Below, piece by piece: positions 39,942 to 57,160 of a stretch of DNA of 64,000 nucleotides. The first letter of the stretch is position 1. Each line of letters starts with the position of its first letter. The DNA is from Glycera tridactyla. Its lineage: Eukaryota. A program made the position numbers and the translations under genes. Below the pieces are notes generated by a model. It saw nothing but the letters and a program-made list of their open reading frames with translations, had not been told where the DNA came from and ran no database searches. The stretch lies in NCBI GenBank assembly GCA_965644265.1, contig OZ286471.1:50406001-50470000 (forward strand), in the 5' to 3' direction.

Positions 39942-40079
39942 AAAAAAAAGAACATGGAATTCCCCGCATTTTTGCCCAGGATCTTATGGACCGGTAACAG
40001 GAAACTCGTTGCGACTACCACGGGTTTCTTCCTATAAGTATGCTGCAATCGATTTGGCATCGTGATGGCAGGTGAATAT

Positions 40080-40315
<236 letters not shown>

Positions 40316-41276
40316 TTTCGAGCTTCTTGATTGGATATGAGTTGGATCTGTGTTGCGATAGAAACAGCTAAGCAGTGGATGGTGAAGAGACACCATATAA
40401 AGGTAAGATTGGCAAGCGATAACGAGATCAACCCAGCATGAATTCGATAATAGCGCGATGCTTATGCTCATGTATAGAATAGACCCCACAGTGCGACACT
40501 CACTCTCAATCAGCTACCCGTTGGAGCAGTCCAGCTGAATTGGATGAAGCAGTAATAAGATGAGTCAACGCCAGATTTATGAGAAAAATCACCCAAGAAT
40601 GAATATTTCACGCGAACATTACCAAGATTGATTTTCCTATTGTCCTCGTCACCAACCTCATCTTTGATAATACTACCACCATCTCACTATCCCATGCTTT
40701 ACCTCGCCATGGGCATTGATATTGTGGCTACCCTATCCAACCTCATTAGCAATATCTCATGGAGGGTACCAACTGATATGAGTCAGATATATCATCCTCT
40801 CCGGATTCCTATCGCTATCCCTCTCTTAGGAAAGAGCTTTGGTTATATCCTATTATCTTGCGGGCAACACTTGGGGAATGTTTATTTTCACATAGATGAG
40901 CGTTACAATCTTCACATTGTGCGGAGGTGACATGAAATGCATTCGGCAGCTTCAGTGGAAAACAATCGTCCATTATCACCCACGAACATAGCACATTATT
41001 TAGGGCAATGCTTTTATTCAATTTGCAGAGTATTGTCGTCTCTGAAAAGCAGCCGCTGCCAACATTAGATATTTTTGCTTGTGAGAAAAAGTAATGCCAA
41101 GTTGGATGTTCCGGTCTTCTTCGAATACTTTCACCGTCTGATTGCACGAAAATCATGCTGTGCTTAAATACATACTGGTCAATTGACAATGAAATCTTTT
41201 GACATATTCACGTCACGAGTTGATCACAACTTATCATTTCGTCATCAATGATGAAGATGAAGATAAATCCTTCATC

Positions 41277-41409: not shown

Positions 41410-43362
41410 TGCTAAATAGATCAGGCAGAGTGAAGAGCATAGTTACAGGTGGAGAATACGAAAGCAAAAAGAAAGTTACAGTTAAAAGCAGTTATGTAAT
41501 CTTTTGCATTACATGAAGGTACAATATGTTGGTCGAACTCTACACAAGCGTTCCGGAAATCATTCCGATGACATATTAGCCAAAGACCATACAAAAGGAT
41601 GTTAGTAGACACTCCACCTCATCTGACTCTATGAGATCAAGGAATATGGCATTCAACCATCTATCGTTTTCATTCCGTTGGCGACTAGAAATGATTTTAG
41701 CTGGATATGATCCTGAATGCTCAAATGCTCACATTATAACCACGAAGATGGAGCAGAAAATATTCCTGAACATTTTGTTTGGCTTGATGACTGTCTAAGC
41801 GAAGTATTCTCAAAAAAGACTCACATCATTCAGTCTTATGAGCCAGCTTTTTATATATGCCATTCATATCCGGCGAAAGATGGTGAGAGAGTGGATCCAC
41901 TGAGAAGACAAAATAACACCATTTCGACGTCGCCAACAACAAATATTTCTTACAACAATATGACTTCGACTTCGCATATAAATGCATTTTTATCATTCCG
42001 AGGAACAGACATCATCAAAATATGATCGGGTGTGACCTGGGTGAGTCACTGACATGAAACTGATGAGTTGGGATTGATTATCTTCATTATACGCCACTCG
42101 AACGGATATCTCGCCTCGAAAAAGTCTGATTCCACTTTTTTTTTTTGATTCATTTTCGTGACATGAGAATGAAAAAAAAAGGCCCACTGTCCTTCTGACA
42201 TGGTTCGAGGACAAAGTAGGCATTTTCTGAACAGAATATTTCGATGTCAGCCCCAGCATCGGGACATTGTCAACAAACCATGACATGACTGTCGTCAGAG
42301 GTGCTGGTCCATGATATCCATGCAGTGATTCATGATAATAAGCTGAAAATCTCCTTGGAATTTCATTCTCCGTTAATTGAATTGAGTCCAGACACAAATG
42401 CCGGAAGAACGAGGTTATTCTCTAGGACATCACGACAGAGAATAATCCATTTAATTTGTTCAGGAGGAAGGGAAGAACTTCTTGCCGGTCTCAGAGGACC
42501 TACTGACATTCATATTAGCTGGGGCAAGCCCTTTTCTGCGTTATGAATGCAAACTCTCCCGTGTCGTCTAATTCCAAGAATCGAACAAACAACTTGAATT
42601 CGCTGTGGATGTGCAATGTCGCAGAAGATTGAATCCATTCTGGATATTGAATCATGAATGATTCATTCTTAGAATCCAGCAGATCATCATGCATAAATTC
42701 ATGATATGACTTGCATCAGATCGATCGAGGAGGGCCTTGAAGTGTCGAGCAATGACTCTATGCATCCCAGTTGTTCTTTCTACAGAAATAGAGTTATGGG
42801 GTCAAGAGTGGCGCAGCGGCTGATGAAGGGTTATGTTTGTGAAAAGGAATGACAATCTCCCGTTGCTCGATTGGCCGTATTATCATTCAATGATTTTACA
42901 AACAAGTCAAGAGGAACTGAGATCACTTGAATAAGAATGAGCATTATCTGATGACTGTAGTACGAGGAAGGGAGGCTATGATTGTCATGAGAGTATTACT
43001 GCTGTATTACATTGTGTTGCTGACTGATGATGCTGTGGTTTCTGCGAAGCTTGCTATACGGTCAGCTTTCTATTTCACATACACATCAGTTTGAGGAAGA
43101 CAGCCACCCGTAATATTGCGTCGGGAACACCACAGTAACCATGGTAAGACACGTGAGGTTAGCAAAAGATTGTGCCCCTACGATGGAAATTCACCCAAAT
43201 CTCTGTTCTAAAATCTCAACTGTGGTTCTGGAAGACGGCCCTTGTAGATACTTTCGGATGAAAAACTTTCCAGGTGATCCTTTTTAGTGATGAGCATGAG
43301 CATGAGCAGCGGCTAGACGTGTCTCGGGACTCGGAGAGAATATCTATGAAAAAGCAAGGATT

Positions 43363-43854
43363 ATGGCAACCAGCATAACGGCCAATGAGGCGACCATTAT
43401 GCATTCTATATCTGGATCACTTCGGAACGATGAAGATCACGACGACACCCTTACATCTAGTATTACGAGCGAAAATAGTTTTGAAGTTGGATCTACACAA
43501 GACGAACCCAAGATGGCTGACACCCCCCGTATACCAAGGCAGGTTAAGCGTGACGCCGATGATCTTACACCCACCAACGACAAAGACCGTAAACCACGTA
43601 ATAGAGTTACAGAAGCTGCCATTGCATTAGAGATGAATAACGGTAAGGCAGATGTTACATTAATAGATACTCTACTCAGTGACTGTGACTTTCTCAATGA
43701 AAGCTTCGATGATGATGATTTCCCACCTGATCCTACCCCAGCAGAAGGACCAGGCACTTCGCTATCACCTTTGCCCGAGGTCACGCATGTTACCCCCGGG
43801 GGGTTGGCAGACAATATTAATAGCGAGAGTCCACCCGATGATGATCTATTGTTT
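43363..43854 (+). pseudogene. LINE ORF1, 5' half (164 codons, acidic/disordered), broken by the Ngaro insertion
   Basis: ATG-initiated open frame running into the insertion at ...DDDLLF; continues in frame at 51115 (DSPTASST...). Confidence 0.8.
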
Positions 43855-44490
43855 TTTATCAAATTCCCAAATACCGGCTTGGTCTCAAGCCTCCTTTAAA
43901 TCACCAAGAGGCTTGAACAGTCGTCCAACCTAAGAAAAATCCCCTATTTGTTTGTGAATGTAAATAATCAGCTTTCATTTCTCAAGTATTGAAAAACCCA
44001 AACACAAGAATTTATAAACAAAATGATTGGCATTTTATTTTTCAAAATGTGTGCCTCTGGACTCATCATGAGGCAACAATTATAATCCTCGGAGAAAACA
44101 ATAGTGCCCAGAGGCACACCAACCAGACACTTCAGGTGTCGACCAAGCTTGCTTACAAGCGAAATATGCAGTATGTCATACTATGAATAACCCTCCTGGC
44201 CAATTGCTAGTGGTTCAATTGCATAATTATTTTATCCCGTTCAATTGCATAATTAGCAATTGCATTGCTAGTAACCAAAGCTAATTGCCAGGAAAGGCTA
44301 ATCGGAATTTTGTTAACAAAAGTAGGTTTGTTAAACACATAACATCATTAACATTTATTTAACTGGTGATACAATAATTGATGACGGTATACAATCGACA
44401 AAGCCCCATGATCGCAGATGGTGAAAGGATTCATACAGATGATCAAGAAATCGTATAGGATGCCATTATGACTTCTCAGCCGGATGCCCC
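43855..44490 (-). repeat. Split direct repeat B2 (636 bp), 3' terminus of the Ngaro element
   Basis: Second copy of B; contains sense-strand AATAAA at 44034-44039 and 44353-44358. Confidence 0.95.
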
Positions 44491-44527
44491 CAAAAAGGGG
44501 AGGTGAAATAGGGGGATGGTGGAGGGT

Positions 44528-44833
44528 GAAGATTTTCAGAAGTGAGGCCGACAAATGGCCGACAGCCGCTTTTATACTCAGGAATCAGCGCCCCCTTTTT
44601 ACATCAATTCCTGCAACAAAAATCTTTATATGAAAAATATTGCATATAACATAATATAAATAAGAAGGAAGCTTATTAAATAAGCAATTAAATTATATGA
44701 GACAAAAAATGAGTAAATCAAAAAGGTCACGTGTCACCATACATCTAGCGGCGACAAAAGGAACTAAGATTTAAGTGGTCTTGTTGAGTCATTTCCAAAA
44801 AATGAATTTTCCCCCCTTTGTCGGAAAATAAGA
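44528..44833 (-). repeat. Split direct repeat A2 (306 bp)
   Basis: Second copy of A, abutting B1 through the TTT core at 44834-44836. Confidence 0.95.
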
Positions 44834-44836
44834 TTT

Positions 44837-45472
44837 TTTATCAAATTCCCAAATACCGGCTTGGTCTCAAGCCTCCTTTAAATCACCAAGAGGCTTGAAC
44901 AGTCGTCCAACCTAAGAAAAATCCCCTATTTGTTTGTGAATGTAAATAATCAGCTTTCATTTCTCAAGTATTGAAAAACCCAAACACAAGAATTTATAAA
45001 CAAAATGATTGGCATTTTATTTTTCAAAATGTGTGCCTCTGGACTCATCATGAGGCAACAATTATAATCCTCGGAGAAAACAATAGTGCCCAGAGGCACA
45101 CCAACCAGACACTTCAGGTGTCGACCAAGCTTGCTTACAAGCGAAATATGCAGTATGTCATACTATGAATAACCCTCCTGGCCAATTGCTAGTGGTTCAA
45201 TTGCATAATTATTTTATCCCGTTCAATTGCATAATTAGCAATTGCATTGCTAGTAACCAAAGCTAATTGCCAGGAAAGGCTAATCGGAATTTTGTTAACA
45301 AAAGTAGGTTTGTTAAACACATAACATCATTAACATTTATTTAACTGGTGATACAATAATTGATGACGGTATACAATCGACAAAGCCCCATGATCGCAGA
45401 TGGTGAAAGGATTCATACAGATGATCAAGAAATCGTATAGGATGCCATTATGACTTCTCAGCCGGATGCCCC
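44837..45472 (-). repeat. Split direct repeat B1 (636 bp)
   Basis: tttatcaaattccc...cggatgcccc matches 43855-44490 (offset 982); begins 6 nt after the YR stop codon. Confidence 0.95.
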
Positions 45473-45478
45473 ACAAAG

Positions 45479-46471
45479 CTACTTATAGCCATCCGGCCCA
45501 TCCAAAGAAACTAACGCTGGACGGATATATGCTTTAAAAGCGTCAGAACACCATCTTCCTTTCAATCTAATGATTTCATTGGAGACACCCTCTGAAACCC
45601 AATCGGTGCACCTTCCAATACGCAATGAATGACTGGAGAACTTTTCTTTATTATCAAAGAAAGGGGAAAGCTTACGGATCCAAGCATTAACATACCTGCT
45701 GGTAACAGGTAAACCATTAATAATGAAAAGGGGGCCAGGATCTAGGCCCCTGAATTTTAGGTAGCGTTGCATATGAATGACTGGGCAAAAAGTAGAATCC
45801 GAAGAAGGTCTAATGATGAAAGATCTTGGTCCTTTAGAAAATTTGTAAGACTGGATGTTGAGCCTATAGCATAAACCTGCAGTAGAATGAACTTCCGAAA
45901 TGTCTTTGAGACAAAGAAAATGCTTGAAAAGATCACTAGATTTAGCATACTCAGAGACTCTTAAGCAAGCCGTATAGGCCCACAAAAACATAGCTTTTAG
46001 CAACGACACCTCAAAAGCTGATAAATTGAAAGCATCAAGAGCTAATATAAGCACACACAATTTATTCTTGTCCAAGGCAGATCTTTTGTCAGAAGTTAAA
46101 CCCGGGTCCTTGGCTAAACCTGCCAACATTCTATTAACAACATAACTTTTACAGTAGTCTTCTTGATGGTTCATTTTGAAACCATGAGATATAGCCGAAA
46201 GCCTGGATTTAATAGAAGTTACCTTCAGGCCTTTAGCTGACAAAAAGGCAACGTATAACGATATGGTATCACAAGATAAAGGCATGCCTACCTCGTTCAA
46301 AAAGGAACCAAAATCGCACCAAGCGTGTGAGTAATTCTTCCATGTGGAAGATGCAAATGACTTATGCACCAGATGATCTACCAAGGCCCAGAGATCATTG
46401 GGTTGAAATGATCCGTTACCAAAACTGGATGGATCGCCAATCCAGCCTCCTTGAGTTTTTCCTGTGAACAT
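45479..46471 (-). CDS. Tyrosine recombinase (integrase) of the Ngaro element, 330 aa
   Basis: Catalytic set intact: CLRVSE (R), SYKFSK (K), HSLRIG (HxxR), GRW (W), AYIR (Y); N-terminal STWKNY...SIKSRLSAI binding domain. Confidence 0.95.
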   Translation of the reverse strand: MFTGKTQGGWIGDPSSFGNGSFQPNDLWALVDHLVHKSFASSTWKNYSHAWCDFGSFLNEVGMPLSCDTISLYVAFLSAKGLKVTSIKSRLSAISHGFKMNHQEDYCKSYVVNRMLAGLAKDPGLTSDKRSALDKNKLCVLILALDAFNLSAFEVSLLKAMFLWAYTACLRVSEYAKSSDLFKHFLCLKDISEVHSTAGLCYRLNIQSYKFSKGPRSFIIRPSSDSTFCPVIHMQRYLKFRGLDPGPLFIINGLPVTSRYVNAWIRKLSPFFDNKEKFSSHSLRIGRCTDWVSEGVSNEIIRLKGRWCSDAFKAYIRPALVSLDGPDGYK

Positions 46472-48069
46472 AAGTTACGAGAAATAAGATCCGGAACAAT
46501 GTTATCAGATCCAGGAATATGGACCGCTGAAAAATCAATGTCATTATAAAGCGTGAAAAGCATGATATGGCGCATTATGCTCATAAGTTCTGAATTCTTA
46601 GCAGATCTCTTATTAATGACATCGACCACTGCATGGTTGTCACAATGAAAAATCACGTGTTTATGTTTTAAGGCAAGGCGAAAGGTCATGATAGCAACTA
46701 AAATAGGATAAAATTCCAAATATGCTATGTTCATGTTGGACCAACCTTCAGGGTATTTTAGGTAAAACCATAAATTTCTAAATACTACGCCAGCTCCCTG
46801 TTTGCATGCATCAGAGGCAATGTGTTCTGGAGATGTACGACTCATAGTGATATCTCTCAAATACGAGAAACCGTTGTAGTTTGATAAAAACTCACGCCAC
46901 ATTTCTAAATCCTTTTGTAAAGCCACAGAAAAAGTGACTTGATGAATTGGATTAGACAGACCAATGGTAGCGTTAATGAGACCTCTCATGAATGATTTAC
47001 CTGGTTTTATCAAGGAGGTAGCCCAGTTGAGCTTACCAATCAAGGATCGTAGAGTACCAAAGGAAACACAATGAGAAATCAAAATGCTATCAATTTCATC
47101 AGCATATTTTCTCAACTTGTCAACTGGGATTTTTGCGAAACCTTGTGGAACGTTGAGTTCGATACCTAGAAAGGATAGGACTTGAGACGGATACTCGGTT
47201 TTCTTTGGGCAAAGAGGGATTCCTACCTCATCACAAAAATGTTGAAAAGATTGCAAACATTTCAAACATTCATCATATCCTTTAGCTGCGAAACAGAAAT
47301 CATCAATCATATGTGAGACGAAGGGTATACCCAAGCGATTTTGACATATCCAATGCAAAGCTGACGAAAATCTTTCGAATATACGACAAGATGATCTGCA
47401 TCCCATTGCTAAACACTTATTAATGTAAAACTCATCACCAAGTCGAAGGCCTAGAAGGTGAAATTGATTTGGAGAGACAGGCAAAATTCTGAAAGCCGAC
47501 TTTATGTCTGTCTTACATAAATAGGTATCTTTTCCGATGTCTTTAATAAATTGAATTACGGAGAAAACTGTAGTATATTGTACCGACGCCTCACTATCTG
47601 GAATATTTGCATTAATGGATAAATGATAATAAGGAGCCGATAAATTGTGAATGAGTCGAAACGAACCAGGCTCTCTTTTTGGCACTATAGAGATAGGGGA
47701 AACTTGTAAATTAACGAAAGGAGGTTCAGAAAAAGGTCCAGCTATACGCCCAAGAGAAACATCCAATGATATAAGTTCTCGTGCCTCTTGAAAATATTCT
47801 TGAACGGAAAAAGAGTTACGACCTCTAAAAGCAGGAGAAGTTCCAGAAAAACCTATATCGAAACCGTTTTTGAGGCCAGAAATGACAAAATCGGCCTCAC
47901 CTTGGTTATAACCAATAAGGTATTCATTTATCCGTTGAAACTTGATGGGAGTCGTTATTTGCAAAAGGCTTTCTCTTGATATTGTCAGATTTTTCTGTAA
48001 CTCCTGATGACTCATTCCTACATAAATAAATAGGGTGTTTGCCATTACAATTCGGACAACAGTGTTCAT
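46378..48069 (-). CDS. pol: Reverse transcriptase + RNase H (DIRS/Ngaro type), 563 aa
   Basis: VSPISIVPKREPGSFRLIHNLS, KTDIKSAFRILP, LAMGCRSSCRIFE, HMIDDF, FLGIEL; RNase H acidic residues in IASDA, YLEFYP, HCDNHAVV, GSDNIVPDLISR. Confidence 0.95.
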   Translation of the reverse strand: MNTVVRIVMANTLFIYVGMSHQELQKNLTISRESLLQITTPIKFQRINEYLIGYNQGEADFVISGLKNGFDIGFSGTSPAFRGRNSFSVQEYFQEARELISLDVSLGRIAGPFSEPPFVNLQVSPISIVPKREPGSFRLIHNLSAPYYHLSINANIPDSEASVQYTTVFSVIQFIKDIGKDTYLCKTDIKSAFRILPVSPNQFHLLGLRLGDEFYINKCLAMGCRSSCRIFERFSSALHWICQNRLGIPFVSHMIDDFCFAAKGYDECLKCLQSFQHFCDEVGIPLCPKKTEYPSQVLSFLGIELNVPQGFAKIPVDKLRKYADEIDSILISHCVSFGTLRSLIGKLNWATSLIKPGKSFMRGLINATIGLSNPIHQVTFSVALQKDLEMWREFLSNYNGFSYLRDITMSRTSPEHIASDACKQGAGVVFRNLWFYLKYPEGWSNMNIAYLEFYPILVAIMTFRLALKHKHVIFHCDNHAVVDVINKRSAKNSELMSIMRHIMLFTLYNDIDFSAVHIPGSDNIVPDLISRNLCSQEKLKEAGLAIHPVLVTDHFNPMISGPW

Positions 48070-49840
48070 ATGTACATTTCTGAAACATACACTTCTTATC
48101 TTGGGCGTGATAATATTGACAGAAACCCGGTTGTATTCGTGATTTGTTAGACTTTGCTTGATTATTTTTATTGGAAGATCCTTCAGTGACTCTGGGAGAT
48201 TTCATAGCCTTTTGGTGTAATACAGCGTGAAATGTATCCCAGGGAAAAGGTGTGATCATTTGGGACCTCAAAGATCGAAAATTCTCATCATAGAATTTAA
48301 AATTACCTCCCTCAGAATCAATTTCACGAACTTCGGCAATATATGCTAGCAACTGTCTACCTTCTCTAGCTTTAACTACTTCAGACTTGAAAGGATGTTG
48401 GTTGTATATATTTTGAAATATCAAAAAGGCCTCATCCCAGTCGTGTATGTTTCTTATAAACTTTCTTTTCTTAGCAAGGACAAACTGACCCGACTTACCG
48501 TCAACAACATAATGCTGACGTGAAATCTTTTCAGCCTGTAATAAATCAGCCAGTTCAATGTATTTGTCCTGCCAGATATTAACTTTAGTATCAATATCAA
48601 TATGAAAACCGATGGGTAATCCTCCCGTAATGACATTACGGGCATTAGGATCTCTAGACATACCTATCTCCTCATCAGTATAGCCAGAACGAATGGGACT
48701 AAAAGGAGACAGTATTTTGTGTGCTGAAGGGCCAGAATCAGGTGAATCTCTGAAACCCATGGCATTGGCTGCCGAATGTAAGGAATTGCCCATGGAAGTA
48801 TCACGACCACTATTTCCTCGTTTCATACTTTCTAAAACAGCATTCATTTGTAAGTGATTATACACAGCGTTTTGCTGCTGGTCAACAGAGACATTGTTCT
48901 GGCTCGAAACCGAAGAAATAACCTGAGCATTGGGAATAGCGAAAGAGTCTCTGAATACTGAGGCCGTAGGCCGAGATGAATTATGACTGTCCGTTTGGCA
49001 GTAATTGTTCGTCGTTATATTGTCGTTAACTTTAAATTTATTATTAGAAAAAGCATTTCCCGTAATATGAGGTCTCCATAAATTGTTAACATTGTGAACT
49101 CGTTCATCCGTATCACTAGGAAAATTATTAGGTCCATGAAAAACAGAGTTCGAATGATGAAACTGCGACATACCTCCAGATGTAATATTCGAAGCAGGGT
49201 CAGACGACCTATCTGAGGAAGGAGGCTGGGGCCAGGCGGCCAGGCCATCGATTCTGGATTGCATTTGCTGTAACATGGTATTGACAGAAGACATCTGCTG
49301 CATAGCAAGTTGAATGGTAGACCGCATTTCTTGTTGAATTCCATGGAATGGTAACTGTTGAACAGAGTTATTCATATTAGGCAATGATCTGGAAGTGCTA
49401 GTGACATTTTTGACAGGAACTGAGGCAGCACTGGAAATACTGTGCCAATGAGCATTGTTGTGTGAAGCATTAGCTGCTGGACGACCAATACCACCCATCA
49501 CTGGTCGATTGGAAATGGAACAAGCTCTGTTGGCGGAACCACGAAACACATCAAGCTTAGGTCCTAAGCTGTTATTGGTATTAGGAACAGGCGTCCCTGC
49601 TGAACACTGGGACACAAGGTTCGGGTTCGAAACTTGACCACAAGGAATCTGAGACACTGGTGAACTATTAATAGCTTCAACAGGCGTTGAACCACGAGAC
49701 AAAAGTTCGATGAAAGGATCGTTCGTTACCTGGCCAGGCGGCGGTCCAAAAGCTGATATATCCGGCGGTCTACCACTCGCAGCAGGCTTCTCCCATGTTT
49801 GAGAATTAATGAAGTCATCTGGGCAAACCCTTTTCGCCAT
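47924..49840 (-). CDS. gag: gag-like ORF of the Ngaro element (~638 aa from the first ATG)
   Basis: Long N/S/Q/P-rich N-terminus; conserved-looking C-terminal half (KVNIWQDKYIELADLL...WDEAFLIF...FYDENFR); C-terminal Cys/His cluster FCQYYHAQDKKCMFQKCTYEHCCPNCNGKHPIYLC. The ORF track starts at TTG 49846; the first ATG is at 49840. Confidence 0.85.
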   Translation of the reverse strand: MAKRVCPDDFINSQTWEKPAASGRPPDISAFGPPPGQVTNDPFIELLSRGSTPVEAINSSPVSQIPCGQVSNPNLVSQCSAGTPVPNTNNSLGPKLDVFRGSANRACSISNRPVMGGIGRPAANASHNNAHWHSISSAASVPVKNVTSTSRSLPNMNNSVQQLPFHGIQQEMRSTIQLAMQQMSSVNTMLQQMQSRIDGLAAWPQPPSSDRSSDPASNITSGGMSQFHHSNSVFHGPNNFPSDTDERVHNVNNLWRPHITGNAFSNNKFKVNDNITTNNYCQTDSHNSSRPTASVFRDSFAIPNAQVISSVSSQNNVSVDQQQNAVYNHLQMNAVLESMKRGNSGRDTSMGNSLHSAANAMGFRDSPDSGPSAHKILSPFSPIRSGYTDEEIGMSRDPNARNVITGGLPIGFHIDIDTKVNIWQDKYIELADLLQAEKISRQHYVVDGKSGQFVLAKKRKFIRNIHDWDEAFLIFQNIYNQHPFKSEVVKAREGRQLLAYIAEVREIDSEGGNFKFYDENFRSLRSQMITPFPWDTFHAVLHQKAMKSPRVTEGSSNKNNQAKSNKSRIQPGFCQYYHAQDKKCMFQKCTYEHCCPNCNGKHPIYLCRNESSGVTEKSDNIKRKPFANNDSHQVSTDK

Positions 49841-50801
49841 CTGCAATCAAATTATATGAGACGAGCAAAAAATTGTTTAAAATAAAAAGAAGGCCAAAAC
49901 AAAAGACGACAGACGCCAAATATCAGTCAAAAAGTCGTAGAAAAATTGGTCATAAGGTATTGAATTTTTTGACCCTCCCCCCTCCCTTCTCCCCCCCCCC
50001 CCTCGTTTTTGCTCACTTCTGAACTACAAAGGTTTGTTAAACCCGCGGACCACTCGACCAAGCGAGGGAAGACTCGAAAGAGCTGCCTGCCTGATTTCTT
50101 TAGTGTATCTGTGGAAATGCTTAGAGTGAACTTTAGGATGAACCCAATCTGAACTCCAAGACTTGACTGTAGAAGGCACACCCTCCATGAGGGATCCGAA
50201 ACCGCGAATATGATAGTAATCTATACCCAACACACCATCACAAAGTTCCTCGGTGTATTTGTTGAAGAACATGGCACGTTCCTTAAAATTAGGATGGCCG
50301 ATAAGTCTATCAATGCAGGATAATAAAACCACTACCTGAACTTGACATGCCTTGCGAACCTTTTGAGCGAAGTCAAAATAATCCATAGCCAATTCTTGGG
50401 GGTCAACGAAATCCAAAGTCAAATCATTACCTCCCAAATTAACAATAAGCATGTCCGGCTTAAGCACTGCCAGTGCTAAAATTTCGTCAGCGACCTCCTC
50501 ATTATAATCATAATCCTTCAGATACATGCACTGACGAAAGTTAACAGTGCTGAAAGATTCGTCTAAGTCTAGGAAGTCCGCATATAATTGTCCTCTAGAA
50601 ACGTAACCATTGTCCATTTCACGATGTAAGCCTTGCTCGGTCAACCGTTCTAGAAGGAAGTCTTCTTGTTGCTTCAAAAGCGAATGCCCTAAATAACACG
50701 CGGTAGGAGGGCGGCCAAGCCATTGTTCTATAGGAATGTATGGTGTTTTGCCCGAGAACCATGCCATACTGAAATATACTATACTAGAGTGGTCCGCGTA
50801 C
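49841..50801 (-). other. Predicted 961-nt intron containing the whole SGNH ORF
   Basis: Donor GAAG|GTACGC lies just past A1. Acceptor has a long pyrimidine tract then ttgattgcag|ATGGCG, with the AG directly abutting the gag ATG. Confidence 0.6.
50024..50767 (-). CDS. SGNH/GDSL-family hydrolase (esterase-like), 247 aa, first ORF of the Ngaro element
   Basis: Block I CYLGHSLL (Ser29), block III LIVNLGGNDL, block V SSDWVHP (DxxH). ATG in strong Kozak context (agtATGG). Lies inside the element, between A1 and gag. Confidence 0.85.
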   Translation of the reverse strand: MAWFSGKTPYIPIEQWLGRPPTACYLGHSLLKQQEDFLLERLTEQGLHREMDNGYVSRGQLYADFLDLDESFSTVNFRQCMYLKDYDYNEEVADEILALAVLKPDMLIVNLGGNDLTLDFVDPQELAMDYFDFAQKVRKACQVQVVVLLSCIDRLIGHPNFKERAMFFNKYTEELCDGVLGIDYYHIRGFGSLMEGVPSTVKSWSSDWVHPKVHSKHFHRYTKEIRQAALSSLPSLGRVVRGFNKPL

Positions 50802-50805
50802 CTTC

Positions 50806-51111
50806 GAAGATTTTCAGAAGTGAGGCCGACAAATGGCCGACAGCCGCTTTTATACTCAGGAATCAGCGCCCCCTTTTTACATCAATTCCTGCAACAAAAA
50901 TCTTTATATGAAAAATATTGCATATAACATAATATAAATAAGAAGGAAGCTTATTAAATAAGCAATTAAATTATATGAGACAAAAAATGAGTAAATCAAA
51001 AAGGTCACGTGTCACCATACATCTAGCGGCGACAAAAGGAACTAAGATTTAAGTGGTCTTGTTGAGTCATTTCCAAAAAATGAATTTTCCCCCCTTTGTC
51101 GGAAAATAAGA
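50806..51111 (-). repeat. Split direct repeat A1 (306 bp), 5' terminus of the Ngaro element
   Basis: gaagattttcagaagtgagg...gtcggaaaataaga matches 44528-44833 (offset 6278); no difference seen on reading. Confidence 0.95.
50817..50854 (-). promoter_or_regulatory. Predicted Pol II core promoter in repeat A: TATAAAAG (50854-50847) and initiator TCACTTC (A+1 ~50821)
   Basis: Minus-strand TATAAAAG lies 33 nt upstream of a YYANWYY match; the same motif recurs in A2 (44569-44576). Prediction only. Confidence 0.55.
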
Positions 51112-51114
51112 TTT

Positions 51115-52665
51115 GACTCACCTACAGCTAGTAGTACACAACATGACAAGCATAACAAACATGAAACTAACTCACCCACTCGCGCACACGAAGCCACTCA
51201 CGAGAAACTGACATCCCCTCAATTTGAGGACGAACTTGATTCCCCCTTGAAGCGCACTGGTGAACCAACTTCCGAGTCAGAACCTGGCCGTGCATTTGAT
51301 GTTCCCCAACTCAAGCATGTTTATGATAAAATGTCGAGTAATTTCACTACATCTATTGGGAAGCTCAGGAAAGAACTCTTAATGCAAATGGACGAGAGCT
51401 TACGTGATTTTCAAGCTGCCATGAACAATCTCATCAAACATGAAATTGCTAGAGCTTTTCAACAAAAAGTACCTGATATGGTCCGCATAGCCACGGCAGC
51501 TGACGTCAAAAATACGATAGATCCCATCCTCCATGACCGTATTAAGCCCCTCGAAGCCTTGACTAACAATACTGCAACCACTGTGCATCAGCATGAACAG
51601 ATACTGAATGACCTACAACGGCATATTGACGAGACCATCGATAGGAAAGTCATCGAGAAAATGGCAAACCTATCTACCTCATGTAACTGTAATGAAAGAT
51701 TTGACCGAATTAGTGGCGTGGTTAATCTCCATGGAAATGAAATCTGTAGGCTTGATGGTGACATGGACCAAATCCAAAAGAATGACCGCCTATGTGTGGT
51801 AATATTTGATGGCTTGGAACATAAAAGGGGGGTCCCACTCCACCAGCAAGTCTACGACGTAATCACAAACTCCCTGAAGGTTGAACTTCGACTGAAAGAC
51901 ATAATACATGCACATAGATTTGGACCTGATGGTAAAGATGGGCTCCCAAAATCAGTGATGGTTCGTCTCTCCTGCCCCGCTATTAGAAGGGATGTAGTCA
52001 GAGCTAAGGGGCTTCTTAAGGGAGGCAGAATCTTCATTAGAGAACACCTGACTAATTACTCTAGCAGCATATACTATCAAGCACGTGCAGCCAAACAGAA
52101 ACGACTGCTGCACAGCACCTGGACCCAAGATGGCTCAGTTTATGCTCTCACGACTGCTGACAGCAGACGCACAGTCATCAATAGTTACGATGAGATCATG
52201 AAACTCAATAGAAGTAAAAATCAAGGGGACAAAAACCATGGAGACCAAAACGGCTTTGAGACTGTAGTGAAGCAACAAGATGGCCTAAATGCACCACCTA
52301 AACAGGCAAACTCCAAGGCGCCACCACCTACACAAGCTAAGCCACCACCACCACCTGAACCAATGCTTCCCGAAAATAACGAATCAGGACTACCCGCAAA
52401 CCCCCGTTCAGTTCGAGCTAACCCTCCAGGGAGGAAACAAAAGTCGCTACTCGAAATGATGAGTACACCAGGCAATAAAGCTGGCACCCTCCCACGAGCG
52501 AAGCCAAAAAACGAGACGAGCAAACTCGCCCTCCCGAAACCTACGTTCGGCAATGCCACCAGAGGTCGTGGTAGGGGTTTAACACATGCGACGATCGTCG
52601 GCGCACCTGGCGCGAATCAAGTCCATACGAATAACATGTATGGCATATTTGGTGCTTCCACCTAG
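51115..52665 (+). pseudogene. LINE ORF1, 3' half (516 aa): coiled-coil plus RRM/CTD-like RNA-binding region
   Basis: Frame is open from 51115 (no stop before the listed TTG at 51247). Heptad-like helical region, then VVIFDGLE...IIHAHRFG...KSVMVRL...LKGGRIFIREHLT...WTQDGSVY, typical of LINE ORF1 proteins. Confidence 0.85.
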
Positions 52666-54196
52666 ACAATCAACAGTCATGGCGTACATGTTGTGACCCA
52701 TCAAGACCTACCAGCGACTTATCGACATAAAATCCATGAGTACCTTTCTAAAAGTATTACACACCCCGAATGAGGTGTGGGATATTTGACTCATACCATT
52801 TATTAATAAAGTAGGAAAGTCAAATTGAGGCTGAGAAGATTGCGGCAGAACATAATGAAATCAAACATGAGCACTGTCCGATTTTCACGAGACGTCGCAT
52901 ACTAAATGCCTATGGTAACCCCAATGTCCTATTTATAGGCTCGAGTCAGGTGGAACAACTGGAGGATTTCCATATATATCTGATACACGGACACACACGC
53001 ACCGCAACATGACTGATTATATGGGAAAAACAATTCAGAACTCGAATATGAAGTTAAGGGCATGCTGAACGACATGCTGATATGATATTCGAGTGCTAAA
53101 GTATGCTATGTCCCCATTTAAAGGTAGCCAACTTGGTCCCCTCATACCAAATCATTTGCACTCAGACTTGACTTAGTTGTGACCCGTGACTTGAGACTTG
53201 CTGGCCATCACCAAGTGGAAGCTATCTACAGTAATTGAATCTTCAATAACATGTTTACTCTTGTGAGCAAGCGCAAGAGAAAGCAAAACCAGTATGGGAG
53301 TGTTATGAGAGGCATGATGGCACTTGACAACGTCCATCTGTGTGACACAAGCTATATCGGGCTGTCAAATAGCATCGTGGGGCAACTACTTGACATATGG
53401 GAAGGACTAGCTGGTAATGTGGACTACTTAGGCCCGTTGTGAACCAGACCAGACATCCCCACAAATGGACACAGGCGGACATTATCTGTCTCTGTTTCCA
53501 CCTAGCAATGACAGGAACATGTTCCCTACTTGTCACAACATCTATTGCCATCTGAAGGAATTACTAGTCACCTACTTTGCCACATAGTTGAATGTCTCAC
53601 AGTGCATATCTGAACTGACTCATAGCCAATCAGCTCTTCCATAAGTAATCAATATACTGATGCTGGCAGCATTCTGGATGGACGTTGGTTGGTCAGTAGC
53701 TTCTAGTTGCCTGATGGCTGCCTGATCTATGAAGCATCGACCTAATGTCCTGCCTGAATGTTGCCTACATCTACATCTATGCCTACATCCTCGTTTTCTC
53801 ACCTGTGCACTTCGCCCAGAATTGTAAACATATGATTCGTGGTTATTCATGTTCAATCTCCCAGCCGAACAATGATACTATGATTGTGGGACACGCCATC
53901 TTTTGACTCACGGCTCCGTGACACTAATCGCCGTATACCCCAAGAGTGGACTACAAGTTCAAGTAATCTATCTCATATCGCTCATATCGCTCATATAGTT
54001 CATATGGTGATAACTAGTCATACAATAGAACCTATCCTGCACTTGATGGCGATGAGAATATTGATGCTACTATATACTGACCAAATACCCAGTGTTGCCT
54101 GCCCCAAATTGCCCTGATGCAATAGTGACCATATCCATATAACACATAGCCAATAAGTGCAATTCTAATATTTATTCTCTCCCCGCTCTCGAATAT

Positions 54197-57160
54197 TTGC
54201 CCAAACTCATTGCAGCAAACTTCAAATATGACCCGTCGGAGTCAATTTATGAAACTACCTCTACTACAGTAGCAGCTGCCAAACTCTCTCAATATCCTGG
54301 TATAACCTTGGCATGTCTGAACATCAGAAGTTTAAGCAAGAGCCTTGCCGATGTCAAAATCTTTCTTCGCCAAAGTGACCTAGACTGCCTGGGTTTAGTA
54401 GAAACCTTCTTGAATACGAATACCATAGATAGTTCCCTACAGATAGCCAACTATATTATGCACAGACTTGACAGAAACAACCAAACCAATAAGACATCAG
54501 GGGGAGGTATTTGCCTATATTGTAAGGACCATTACAATTTTAGTTTTATTACTGATTGGGATCTTATTTGCGATGACCTTGAACTATGTTGGTGTAGACT
54601 TAAATTACCACAGACCAGACCGACGTATATTGCAATAGCATATAGGCCACCTAGTGGCAATATCACTAACGCTTTAGAACTCCTCGAACACAGACTAGTT
54701 GATATATATAGCAACCGAACAGCCGACGTGTGGATTTTGGGTGACATAAACATCAACCTACTGACGAATACCCCTTCTACCAAGAAATATCGCAACTTCC
54801 TCAAAACCCTTCACCTGGACCAATTAATTACGCAACCTACAAGAGTGACAAGAAACACACAAACTCTGATTGATCACATATTAACAAATCATAAAGAATT
54901 GAACCATTCATATGGAATCTTGGACTTGGGGCTAAGTGATCACACATTAGTCTATACAGTCAGGAAAAAACGTAAAATAAGCAAAAAGGGCAGTTTTATC
55001 CAAATAAGAAACTACAGGGATGTAAATATCAATAGTTTCAATCAAGCAGTTAGTGAACATGACTGGAGAGAACTTTTTGCCAGTGATTCAGTTGACAGAT
55101 GCTTAGAAATCTTCTACAATAATCTTATACCTATCTGCAATAGTTTCTGTCCGTGGAAAAATATACGCGCTCGCGACGAAAGGCCAGGATGGGTCAACAG
55201 TGAATACTTGAGCCATGTAGACAATAGAATCTATAGAAGTAAATGCTTCAGGCTTGATCCAACAGAAGAAAATGAAAGATTGAAAAAGGAATCACAACGA
55301 AACACAAATAGACTAAAGAAATCACTACAAAGAGAATATATCAGTAGTAAGCTTACCAATGTGTCTGATAATCCAAAACAACTATGGAGATTGATTAGGG
55401 AATTTTGGCCCAACAATAAGAGCCATACCACGATAAATAGAATCCAATCGGAAACGGACCAAAGTAAAATCGCTAACTTGTTAAATGAATTTTTCAGCAC
55501 CATTGGTCAAAAACTCAATGATGAATTCGACAATGACACATCTCACAACGGAACAATGTATAATGGAAATGTTAACATGCATACACCATTTACCTTCAAG
55601 CCTATACTTAAGAAAGAAATAACAGACATCATAAACAAAATGTTCGCATCCAAGAGCACTGGTAATGATGGGCTACCACCCACAATTATCAAATGGCTCG
55701 CCAATTCGATATCACCTATATTGGTACACATTTTCAATTTAAGTCTGTCAAATTCCACTTTCCCACAACAATGGAAGCAAGGTATCATTACTCCACTTTA
55801 CAAAGAAGGGCGTAGGGACAACCCATCAAATTACAGACCAATTACGGTCCTTGCCCCACTGAGCAAAGTACTTGAAAGACTTGCACATAATCAAATATCT
55901 GACTATCTTGACAGGCTTAATATTTTATGTGTAGAACAGGTGGGGTTCAGGAGGGGGCACTCCACTGTGACATGTCTGCTCCAGTTCTTGGACAAAATCT
56001 ACCTAGGACTGGAGCGGGGATGTCCCAGTGGAGTCCTCTTCCTGGACCTGCGCAAAGCCTTTGATACGGTTAATCATAGTATTTTATGCACGAAAATCCT
56101 CACCATGGGCATCGGACCAGTAGCCACAAATTGGATAAAATCTTATCTAGCTAATAGAACCTGTCGAACAAAGGTAAATGGTGTCTTATCAGATCCTCAA
56201 GTTGTCAATTGCGGTGTGCCCCAGGGTTCGATCCTGGGGCCACTCTTATTTACAATGTATGTGAATGATCTACCGCATCTATTTGATAATCCCAATGTAC
56301 ATCTATATGCTGATGACACTGCGCTATCCTATACATGTAATAACCCTGATGAACTTCAAAATATGTTAAATTATAATCTTGCATTAATAGGAGATTGGCT
56401 CAAGTGCAATAAATTGGAACTCAATGTGAAAAAAACTAAATACATGCTTTTTGGTACTCCAAAAATGTTGAAAACATTTGAAAATGTAGTAGTCGAGTAT
56501 GGGGGAGACAATATTGACAAAGTAGACCAGTTTAAATATCTTGGACTGATGCTGGACAATGGACTAAAATTCACTAAGCACGCTGAATATGTAAAGTCCA
56601 AAACTATTGGTAAGGTTAAATATCTCGGTAGACTGAGGCCTGTCATAAATCAGGAAACCGCTCTCATGCTCTACAAAAGCCTTGTCTCCCCCATATTCGA
56701 CTACTGCAACATAGTGTATGATAATCTCTTACAGAGAGACTCCAATATGCTCCAGAGGATTCAAAATTATGCAGCACGGATGATCCTCATGAGTGATAGA
56801 ACTACCCCTAGCTCTGTACTTCATGAGGAACTTAAACTCGACAAACTAAGCACCAGGCGGAAAAAACATGCAGGGGATTCTGTATTTAAAGCGTTAAAAA
56901 CTAACACTTTGCCCTGCAATATACGGAACATGTTGAAATATGTATCACTACGCCATAATAGAACCACAAGAACTGCCTCTAGGAATAATTTACAGATCCC
57001 ACGGCTAAGACTCACCAAATCAAAGGGAAATTTCATGTACAAGGGTCCCCACCTTTGGAATGATCTCAATTGTCAACTGAGGGAATCATGTTCGGTAGAC
57101 GTATTCAAGAAGGGAATTGGCAAAATAAGCAACCCATGGCAACTCGGCACGGTAACATAG
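54197..57160 (+). CDS. LINE ORF2: APE endonuclease + reverse transcriptase, ~987 aa, uninterrupted
   Basis: CLNIRSL, LVETFL, AYRPPSG, LGDININL, TLIDHI, LSDH; NYRPI, FLDLRKAFDTV, GVPQGSILGPLLF, LYADDTA, FKYLG. Starts at TTG; the first in-frame ATG is at codon 88. Confidence 0.93.
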   Translation: MPKLIAANFKYDPSESIYETTSTTVAAAKLSQYPGITLACLNIRSLSKSLADVKIFLRQSDLDCLGLVETFLNTNTIDSSLQIANYIMHRLDRNNQTNKTSGGGICLYCKDHYNFSFITDWDLICDDLELCWCRLKLPQTRPTYIAIAYRPPSGNITNALELLEHRLVDIYSNRTADVWILGDININLLTNTPSTKKYRNFLKTLHLDQLITQPTRVTRNTQTLIDHILTNHKELNHSYGILDLGLSDHTLVYTVRKKRKISKKGSFIQIRNYRDVNINSFNQAVSEHDWRELFASDSVDRCLEIFYNNLIPICNSFCPWKNIRARDERPGWVNSEYLSHVDNRIYRSKCFRLDPTEENERLKKESQRNTNRLKKSLQREYISSKLTNVSDNPKQLWRLIREFWPNNKSHTTINRIQSETDQSKIANLLNEFFSTIGQKLNDEFDNDTSHNGTMYNGNVNMHTPFTFKPILKKEITDIINKMFASKSTGNDGLPPTIIKWLANSISPILVHIFNLSLSNSTFPQQWKQGIITPLYKEGRRDNPSNYRPITVLAPLSKVLERLAHNQISDYLDRLNILCVEQVGFRRGHSTVTCLLQFLDKIYLGLERGCPSGVLFLDLRKAFDTVNHSILCTKILTMGIGPVATNWIKSYLANRTCRTKVNGVLSDPQVVNCGVPQGSILGPLLFTMYVNDLPHLFDNPNVHLYADDTALSYTCNNPDELQNMLNYNLALIGDWLKCNKLELNVKKTKYMLFGTPKMLKTFENVVVEYGGDNIDKVDQFKYLGLMLDNGLKFTKHAEYVKSKTIGKVKYLGRLRPVINQETALMLYKSLVSPIFDYCNIVYDNLLQRDSNMLQRIQNYAARMILMSDRTTPSSVLHEELKLDKLSTRRKKHAGDSVFKALKTNTLPCNIRNMLKYVSLRHNRTTRTASRNNLQIPRLRLTKSKGNFMYKGPHLWNDLNCQLRESCSVDVFKKGIGKISNPWQLGTVT

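Follow-up and report, generated by a model that had tools for sequence, protein, structure and literature searches.

We conclude with good confidence that four GT–AG introns are removed from a retrotransposon of Glycera tridactyla in public contigs that are likely RNA, and that the genes of this element are likely expressed by alternative splicing of one transcript. The core proteins are likely made only from spliced messages, and the uncut genome RNA would make just an SGNH hydrolase-like protein, whose reading frame is enclosed by intron 1. The window is the whole stretch of DNA analysed, 64,000 nucleotides of contig OZ286471.1, and its features are listed in Table 1.

The element occupies 51114–43852 on the minus strand, in the order A1, SGNH ORF, gag, RT/RNase H, tyrosine recombinase (YR), B1, A2, spacer, B2. 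Its split direct repeats (A1-ORFs-B1-A2-B2) and its overlapping gag-like, RT/RNase H and YR ORFs are as in Ngaro-like YR retrotransposons. The RT ORF matches Pfam RVT_1 (E 4e-11), and gag is assigned by position and a Cys/His knuckle only. No methyltransferase Pfam match at E ≤ 0.1 was found in any of the four ORFs, a search that a highly diverged one could escape; the lack of a Dam-like methyltransferase is the trait that sets Ngaro-like elements apart from DIRS1 and PAT. The trinucleotide AAA, present at both ends of the element as well as at the B1/A2 junction, represents a short shared integration junction, with no long target duplication. On these sequence features the element is classified as a recombinase retrotransposon of Ngaro type, in which an SGNH ORF stands ahead of gag; the tree took in copies from this genome alone. 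The A2–B2 spacer is 33–37 nt long, and in the window it consists of CCACC/CCTCC repeats followed by CCCC, a composition similar across all 19 families compared.

Table 1. Features of the element and its introns in window coordinates
Feature	Position	Strand	Description
Repeat A1	50806..51114	-	309 nt, identical to A2; carries acceptor 4, TATA and Inr-like motif
TATA box	50847..50854	-	TATAAAAG; TATA-like box in 43/43 copies
Predicted exon 1	50802..50821	-	Inr-like CCTCACTT, A at 50821; putative start
Intron 1	49841..50801	-	961 nt, GT-AG; encloses SGNH ORF; joint in X1, X3, X4, and conserved sites
SGNH hydrolase-like ORF	50024..50767	-	247 aa; within intron 1; GHS, GxND and DxxHP blocks
gag-like ORF	47924..49840	-	638 aa; N half variable, C half conserved with Cys/His knuckle
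Exon 2	49730..49840	-	111 nt, 37 codons from gag ATG
Intron 2	49355..49729	-	375 nt, in frame, CAG/GTAACG...AACAG; joint in 4/4 runs
Exon 3	49174..49354	-	181 nt; Gln/Met-rich, helical-looking Gag segment; ends in phase 1
Intron 3	46462..49173	-	2712 nt, GAG/GTATGT...TTCACAG/G; joint in X1, X2, X4
RT/RNase H ORF	46378..48201	-	607 aa between stops; +1 to gag; lacks a conserved ATG
Predicted RT acceptor	48017..48020	-	TTTATGTAG/G, phase 1 in RT frame; predicted from sequence
YR ORF	45479..46474	-	331 aa between stops; weak Pfam match to Phage_integrase (E 0.043)
Exon 4	46292..46461	-	170 nt; terminates at donor 4, GAG/GTAGGC
Intron 4	44611..46291	-	If A2 acceptor used: TTGTTGCAG/G at 44611/44610; joint in X1, X3, X4
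Repeat B1	44834..45472	-	639 nt, identical to B2; AATAAA about 136 nt into the repeat
Repeat A2	44528..44836	-	Identical to A1 over 309 nt; no donor after A2
C-rich A2/B2 spacer	44491..44527	-	Alike in all families compared
Repeat B2	43852..44490	-	639 nt, identical to B1

Conservation was assessed among copies from the same genome. A DNA search, in which 40 of 81 candidates were scored, returned 10 close copies including the window element (87–100% identity), as well as a sister family of roughly 70% identity. In a protein search, 150 of 1930 candidates were scored. Sixty loci chosen across the identity range (59 from the protein search, 1 from a search with exon 3) made up 61 elements with that of the window. 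Eighteen were left out because either the A1/A2 pair or the RT core could not be detected, and paired A repeats are present in the 43 intact copies that remain of the 61. At 80% DNA identity these form 20 families, whose counts are not independent trials because families share ancestry; RT cores of the other families are 61–76% identical in DNA to those of the window's family. The order SGNH then gag was found in 40/40 distant copies.

The first-pass annotation had proposed that the SGNH ORF lies inside an intron, citing a TATA box at 50854, a donor GAAG/GTACGC (GT at 50801–50800) just past A1, the absence of any ATG ahead of the SGNH ATG at 50767, and a U-rich tract ending in TTGATTGCAG/ATGGCG, with the AG touching the gag ATG at 49840. 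All of these motifs were located at the bases claimed, the donor 4 nt beyond the A1 end (50806), and no ATG occurs between 50882 and 50767. Conservation of the donor and acceptor in other copies, which the annotation had named as a check, was also found. A donor core stands 1–7 nt past the A1 end in 43/43 copies and 20/20 families, against 0/43 copies past A2 and a background of 10% of 10-nt windows. An AG lies 0–1 nt before the gag ATG in 41/43 copies (directly in 37, with one base between in 4); one of the two exceptions reads CGG, and in the other no gag start could be located. This measure gives 5/43 for the SGNH ATG and 11% for background ATGs, and TTTCAG, which ends one base ahead of the SGNH start, was rejected as an alternative acceptor because it is not conserved (5/43 copies).

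Intron 1 varies in length among copies from 845 to 1010 nt, with both ends fixed, and its pyrimidine fraction is 0.70 upstream of the acceptor versus 0.52 in the intron body. The donor consensus, pyrimidine tract and YAG acceptor are features of a U2-type spliceosomal intron, and, judged on conservation among copies, the sites of intron 1 are beyond chance. The TATA-like box precedes the donor GT by 53–55 nt in all 43 copies under a loosened pattern that includes CATAAA and TACTTAA, and an Inr-like A follows it by 32–33 nt in 41/43. The claim that splicing improves the context of the gag start extends to the other copies as well: position −3 relative to the gag ATG would be a purine in 42/43 copies when spliced versus 4/43 unspliced. 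In one family (L069, L070, L072), exon 1 ends in ATG at the donor, which would place two successive ATGs at the spliced gag start.

The joints come from contigs of four runs (X1–X4), all of one study, whose RNA status was guessed, none being recorded as RNA. The evidence consists of assembled contigs at depth 3–25, from which starts, strand, level and single transcripts are not readable. The exact junction that had been predicted for intron 1, 50802 to 49840 (961 nt skipped, CT..AC on the plus strand), is present in contigs of X1, X3 and X4, not in X2; the joints 49730 to 49354, 49174 to 46461 and 46292 to repeat A occur in the runs given in Table 1. Those of introns 1–3 were reported with CT..AC ends, and all four introns have consensus donors and YAG acceptors. 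An unspliced X1 contig (50011–50831, 821 nt) spans donor 1 and the SGNH ORF. Intron 1 is very probably real, and its spliced and unspliced forms both occur among X1 contigs, which are likely RNA.

The proposed transcription start at 50821 fared less evenly. The Inr-like motif is there, and the 20-nt exon 1 is putative: contigs spliced at intron 1 extend to 50831 (X1) and 50835 (X3 and X4), 10–14 nt above the predicted start, and some spliced molecules therefore begin further upstream. A host exon of 110 nt, ending in GAG/GTAAGG and present as a single copy (G000:C51:63906463-63906490, locus L101), is joined to acceptor 1 in two runs, X2 and X4, and in X2 to acceptor 4 as well, the joins falling at window positions 49842 and 50890. 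This result indicates that part of the spliced signal is host-driven read-through. No close element copy was found near the host exon in this assembly by the exon-3 search, which makes it likely that the insertion is private to the animals that were sequenced. The host exon opens a frame of 36 codons from an ATG and ends in phase 0, and would be in frame with Gag. The shared loose end of these contigs was considered as a trans-spliced leader and rejected, as it traces to a single exon in the genome that has a GTAAGG donor, and its length in X4 is 197 nt.

Of the three further introns, none of which the first-pass annotation had proposed, one supplies the recombinase with a start codon. Intron 3 takes out the C half of gag and nearly all of RT/RNase H, and joins the N-terminal part of Gag (Gag-N) in frame to YR: exons 2 and 3 sum to 292 nt, which gives phase 1, and YR is entered at 46461, the second position of one of its codons. 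The frame is the same whether or not intron 2 (375 nt) is removed. An upstream Met of its own is present in the YR ORF of only 16/42 copies (absent in 26/42), and two sisters of the window element (88–93%) do not have it. Donor 3 sits in a poorly conserved Gag stretch, and is found in phase 1 in 40/42 copies versus 3/42 in the other two phases; in the two misses the site is present with a frameshift upstream. Acceptor 3 stands at the exact base in 40/42 copies, and the RT-frame Gln that overlaps it is always CAG, a codon used for 198 of 611 Gln elsewhere in RT. For intron 2, the donor is kept in 25/42 copies and 7/19 families, and the acceptor is not recognisably conserved in distant families. 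Contig 9 of X2 runs through exons 2 and 3 into YR and reaches 46070, beyond donor 4, and the X2 contig with YR whole starts with the host exon.

Acceptor 4 is conserved in 43/43 copies and, through the repeats, has an identical A1 copy at 50889/50888. The stretch compared lay outside A2, so the joint from 46292 was reported against the A1 copy; all four runs show A running into the post-A2 spacer, and a forward splice to 44610 is thus the simplest reading. A back-spliced circle of 549 nt (donor 4 to the A1 acceptor), which the contig graph would also allow, seems rather unlikely. Donor 4 is present in 31/43 copies and 10/20 families, and all 31 read xAG GTA GGC at synonymous positions; a substitute donor at a shared position was sought in the 10 families without donor 4 and none was found. 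RNA from which all four introns are removed would meet a stop 3 codons into repeat A, after about 157 residues.

The same phase-1 donor 3 probably also joins a conserved acceptor ahead of RT, a joint that is predicted only. An in-phase YAG occurs at 48018 or the matching place in 40/43 copies, and slightly upstream of it in the remaining 3. In 16/20 families a Gag Cys-Arg overlaps the RT acceptor, and this Arg is AGR without exception, whereas AGR accounts for 680 of 1264 Arg codons across gag. An RT joint is not among the joints reported for the four runs; contig depth at that place is 0–7, too thin to speak for or against it.

The ORF within intron 1 is a predicted SGNH/GDSL hydrolase, on the strength of a sub-threshold Pfam match (Lipase_GDSL_2, E 1.2e-5, below the cut-off), conserved blocks and the fold matches of a moderate model. 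Ser29, Asn114 and His210 are each conserved in at least 90% of the rows of a 14-row alignment, and block II was not located in that alignment. The structural model has pLDDT 58, and its top fold matches are SGNH hydrolases at E 0.003 or worse, none at E ≤ 0.001. The sequence itself has no match in the PDB at E < 0.39. A profile search recovered 552 relatives; 0 of 460 candidates reached E ≤ 0.001 in a word-indexed homolog search, and a metagenome scan gave 27 pattern matches, 0 of them confirmed. In some families only, a G-run follows the SGNH stop (49971–50003 in the window). Pairing of this run with the C-rich spacer after A2 was rejected as a genome-selection signal, since own pairs ranked no higher than pairs made across families (mean rank 0.50, 19 families).

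These results suggest the following expression programme. Unspliced RNA started in A1 would be the replication template and would be translated into SGNH from its first ATG. That unspliced RNA serves as both genome and SGNH mRNA had been proposed on first pass; its unspliced form was found as a contig, and we infer its role from the SGNH ATG being the first ATG past donor 1 in 38/43 copies and from the retention of introns in 30/30 loci. Removal of intron 1 would give a Gag message with a better start context, making Gag dependent on this intron. If intron 3 is also removed, a Gag-N/recombinase protein would result, with 222 Gag codons, or 97 if intron 2 is out too, and RT would be expressed through the same donor as YR. 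Loss of intron 4 as well would yield the truncated product of about 157 residues, which is possibly regulatory. The A2 acceptor may, speculatively, define the last exon such that the polyadenylation signal of B2 is used over that of B1; terminal acceptors promote 3′ end formation according to the available part of PMC3737548. Packaging would occur in trans, as DIRS-1 RT is described to act in the accessible text of PMC7192593, and SGNH might have a role in cis. We see an even chance that the whole amounts to an inside-out retroviral programme, in which Gag, Gag-RT and Gag-recombinase come only from spliced RNAs sharing one ATG, the genome RNA is never itself a source of Gag and has to be captured in trans, and the intron-borne SGNH, as the sole cis protein, is a candidate genome-selection tag.

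Other explanations of the joints were weighed against expression by alternative splicing. It is improbable that the joints are incidental, arising from cryptic sites used in host-promoter transcription (exonisation) while the element normally uses leaky scanning or frameshifting. Exonisation draws support from the single-copy host exon joined to acceptors 1 and 4 in X2/X4, from joined contigs that extend above the Inr, and from the origin of the joints in one study only. However, the sites are kept in 17–20 of 19–20 families across RT cores of the divergence given above, donor 3 is held in one phase where Gag itself is poorly conserved, and YR and RT are without conserved ATGs; as for frameshifting, RT is +1 to gag, out of reach of a −1 frameshift. 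Somewhat less probable again is the reading that splicing mainly serves host silencing or self-limitation, with the fully spliced truncated RNA as its purpose and the in-frame joins as by-products. The four-intron product does end in a stop, and the multiply spliced path in X1 has depth 22–25 versus 1–8 in most unspliced RT/YR bins, depth being a poor measure; but donor 4 is absent in 10/20 families, whereas sites 1 and 3, donors and acceptors alike, occur almost universally and in frame. Silencing or self-limitation could hold for intron 4 alone.

That the runs are DNA, with joints from processed intron-less copies or assembly artefacts, is very improbable indeed. Their RNA status is not on record, and the DNA search scored only the 40 of 81 candidates noted above, which leaves this reading some room. 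The exon-3 search, however, scored all 34 candidates, and among the 30 loci examined (10 close and 20 sister copies) it found 0 intron-less DNA copies, introns 2 and 3 being kept in every one; intron-less DNA copies in this assembly therefore do not explain the joints. Moreover, the four joints and the host exon all fall on splice consensus, and processed copies would themselves require splicing. Expression by alternative splicing remains our preferred reading.

In retroviruses, env and accessory mRNAs are spliced and Gag is made from unspliced RNA. This logic is inverted here, where Gag itself appears to need a splice. The foamy virus Pol message, as described in the available part of PMC3705302, is alike in its 5′ major donor just past the repeat and in producing enzymes from a spliced mRNA; foamy virus Pol is made without any Gag sequence, whereas here YR retains the Gag N-terminus. 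The shGAG message of plant Ty1/Copia elements is a further parallel, in that a conserved splice yields a dedicated Gag message separate from genomic RNA; those elements are of the LTR/integrase kind, and their single intron, close to the protease, is coupled to early termination (PMC5580714, in the text accessible). Unlike there, splicing in the Glycera element cuts out a gene that lies upstream and creates Gag-enzyme fusions.

Among DIRS-order elements, the closest likeness is to Xenopus DIRS-53_XT and DIRS-54_XT, which, according to the accessible text of PMC9210276, have A1...B1-A2-B2 repeats, gag, RT/RH, YR, an extra SGNH ORF and no methyltransferase match. The hydrolase of amphibian Ngaro elements follows YR in that account, whereas here SGNH is the first ORF, intronic, and the core ORFs are splice-linked; the terms 'splic' and 'intron' do not occur in the available text of that paper. 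SGNH esterases borne by retroelements with intact catalytic residues are also described, within the sections available, as an ORF1p domain of non-LTR elements (PMC3905857) and as a 3′ ORF3 of rotifer LTR elements (PMC5408684), in contrast to the free 5′ ORF here. Natural splicing in Ngaro/DIRS elements is not mentioned in the accessible portions of PMC9210276, PMC7192593, PMC6681497, PMC8547959, PMC3783388, PMC9341512, PMC12477816, PMC5890265 and PMC9940879. A literature search, with the founding Poulter-lab texts, Repbase notes and supplements outside its scope, found no splicing in DIRS-order elements.

How the overlapping DIRS-order ORFs without start codons are expressed is left unexplained in the available text of PMC3783388, PMC6681497, PMC7192593, PMC9210276 and PMC8547959. 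The joints in public contigs and the family-wide conservation would provide a base-level answer. Fusion proteins are predicted that current annotations miss, and the unexplained Ngaro hydrolase would gain a defined place in the life cycle. These elements also bring with them strong splice acceptors, by which host exons are captured.

Several further features of the window and the genome were recorded. The Ngaro element is nested in a LINE: halves of an ORF1-like gene lie on the plus strand at 43306–43851 and 51115–52665, with a TTT/AAA junction, and the interrupted gene, both halves of which are in the same phase, lies upstream of an endonuclease-RT ORF at 54143–57160. A long GAC/GAG/GAT microsatellite at 40040–40340 gives rise to spurious homopolymer ORFs. 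In two copies (L063 and L096) the 3′ end is extended by one more B-A unit (B-A-B-A-B). SGNH-first Ngaro elements form a large radiation in this genome, with 1930 first-look candidates and at least 20 families with near-identical repeats, which points to many recently active lineages.
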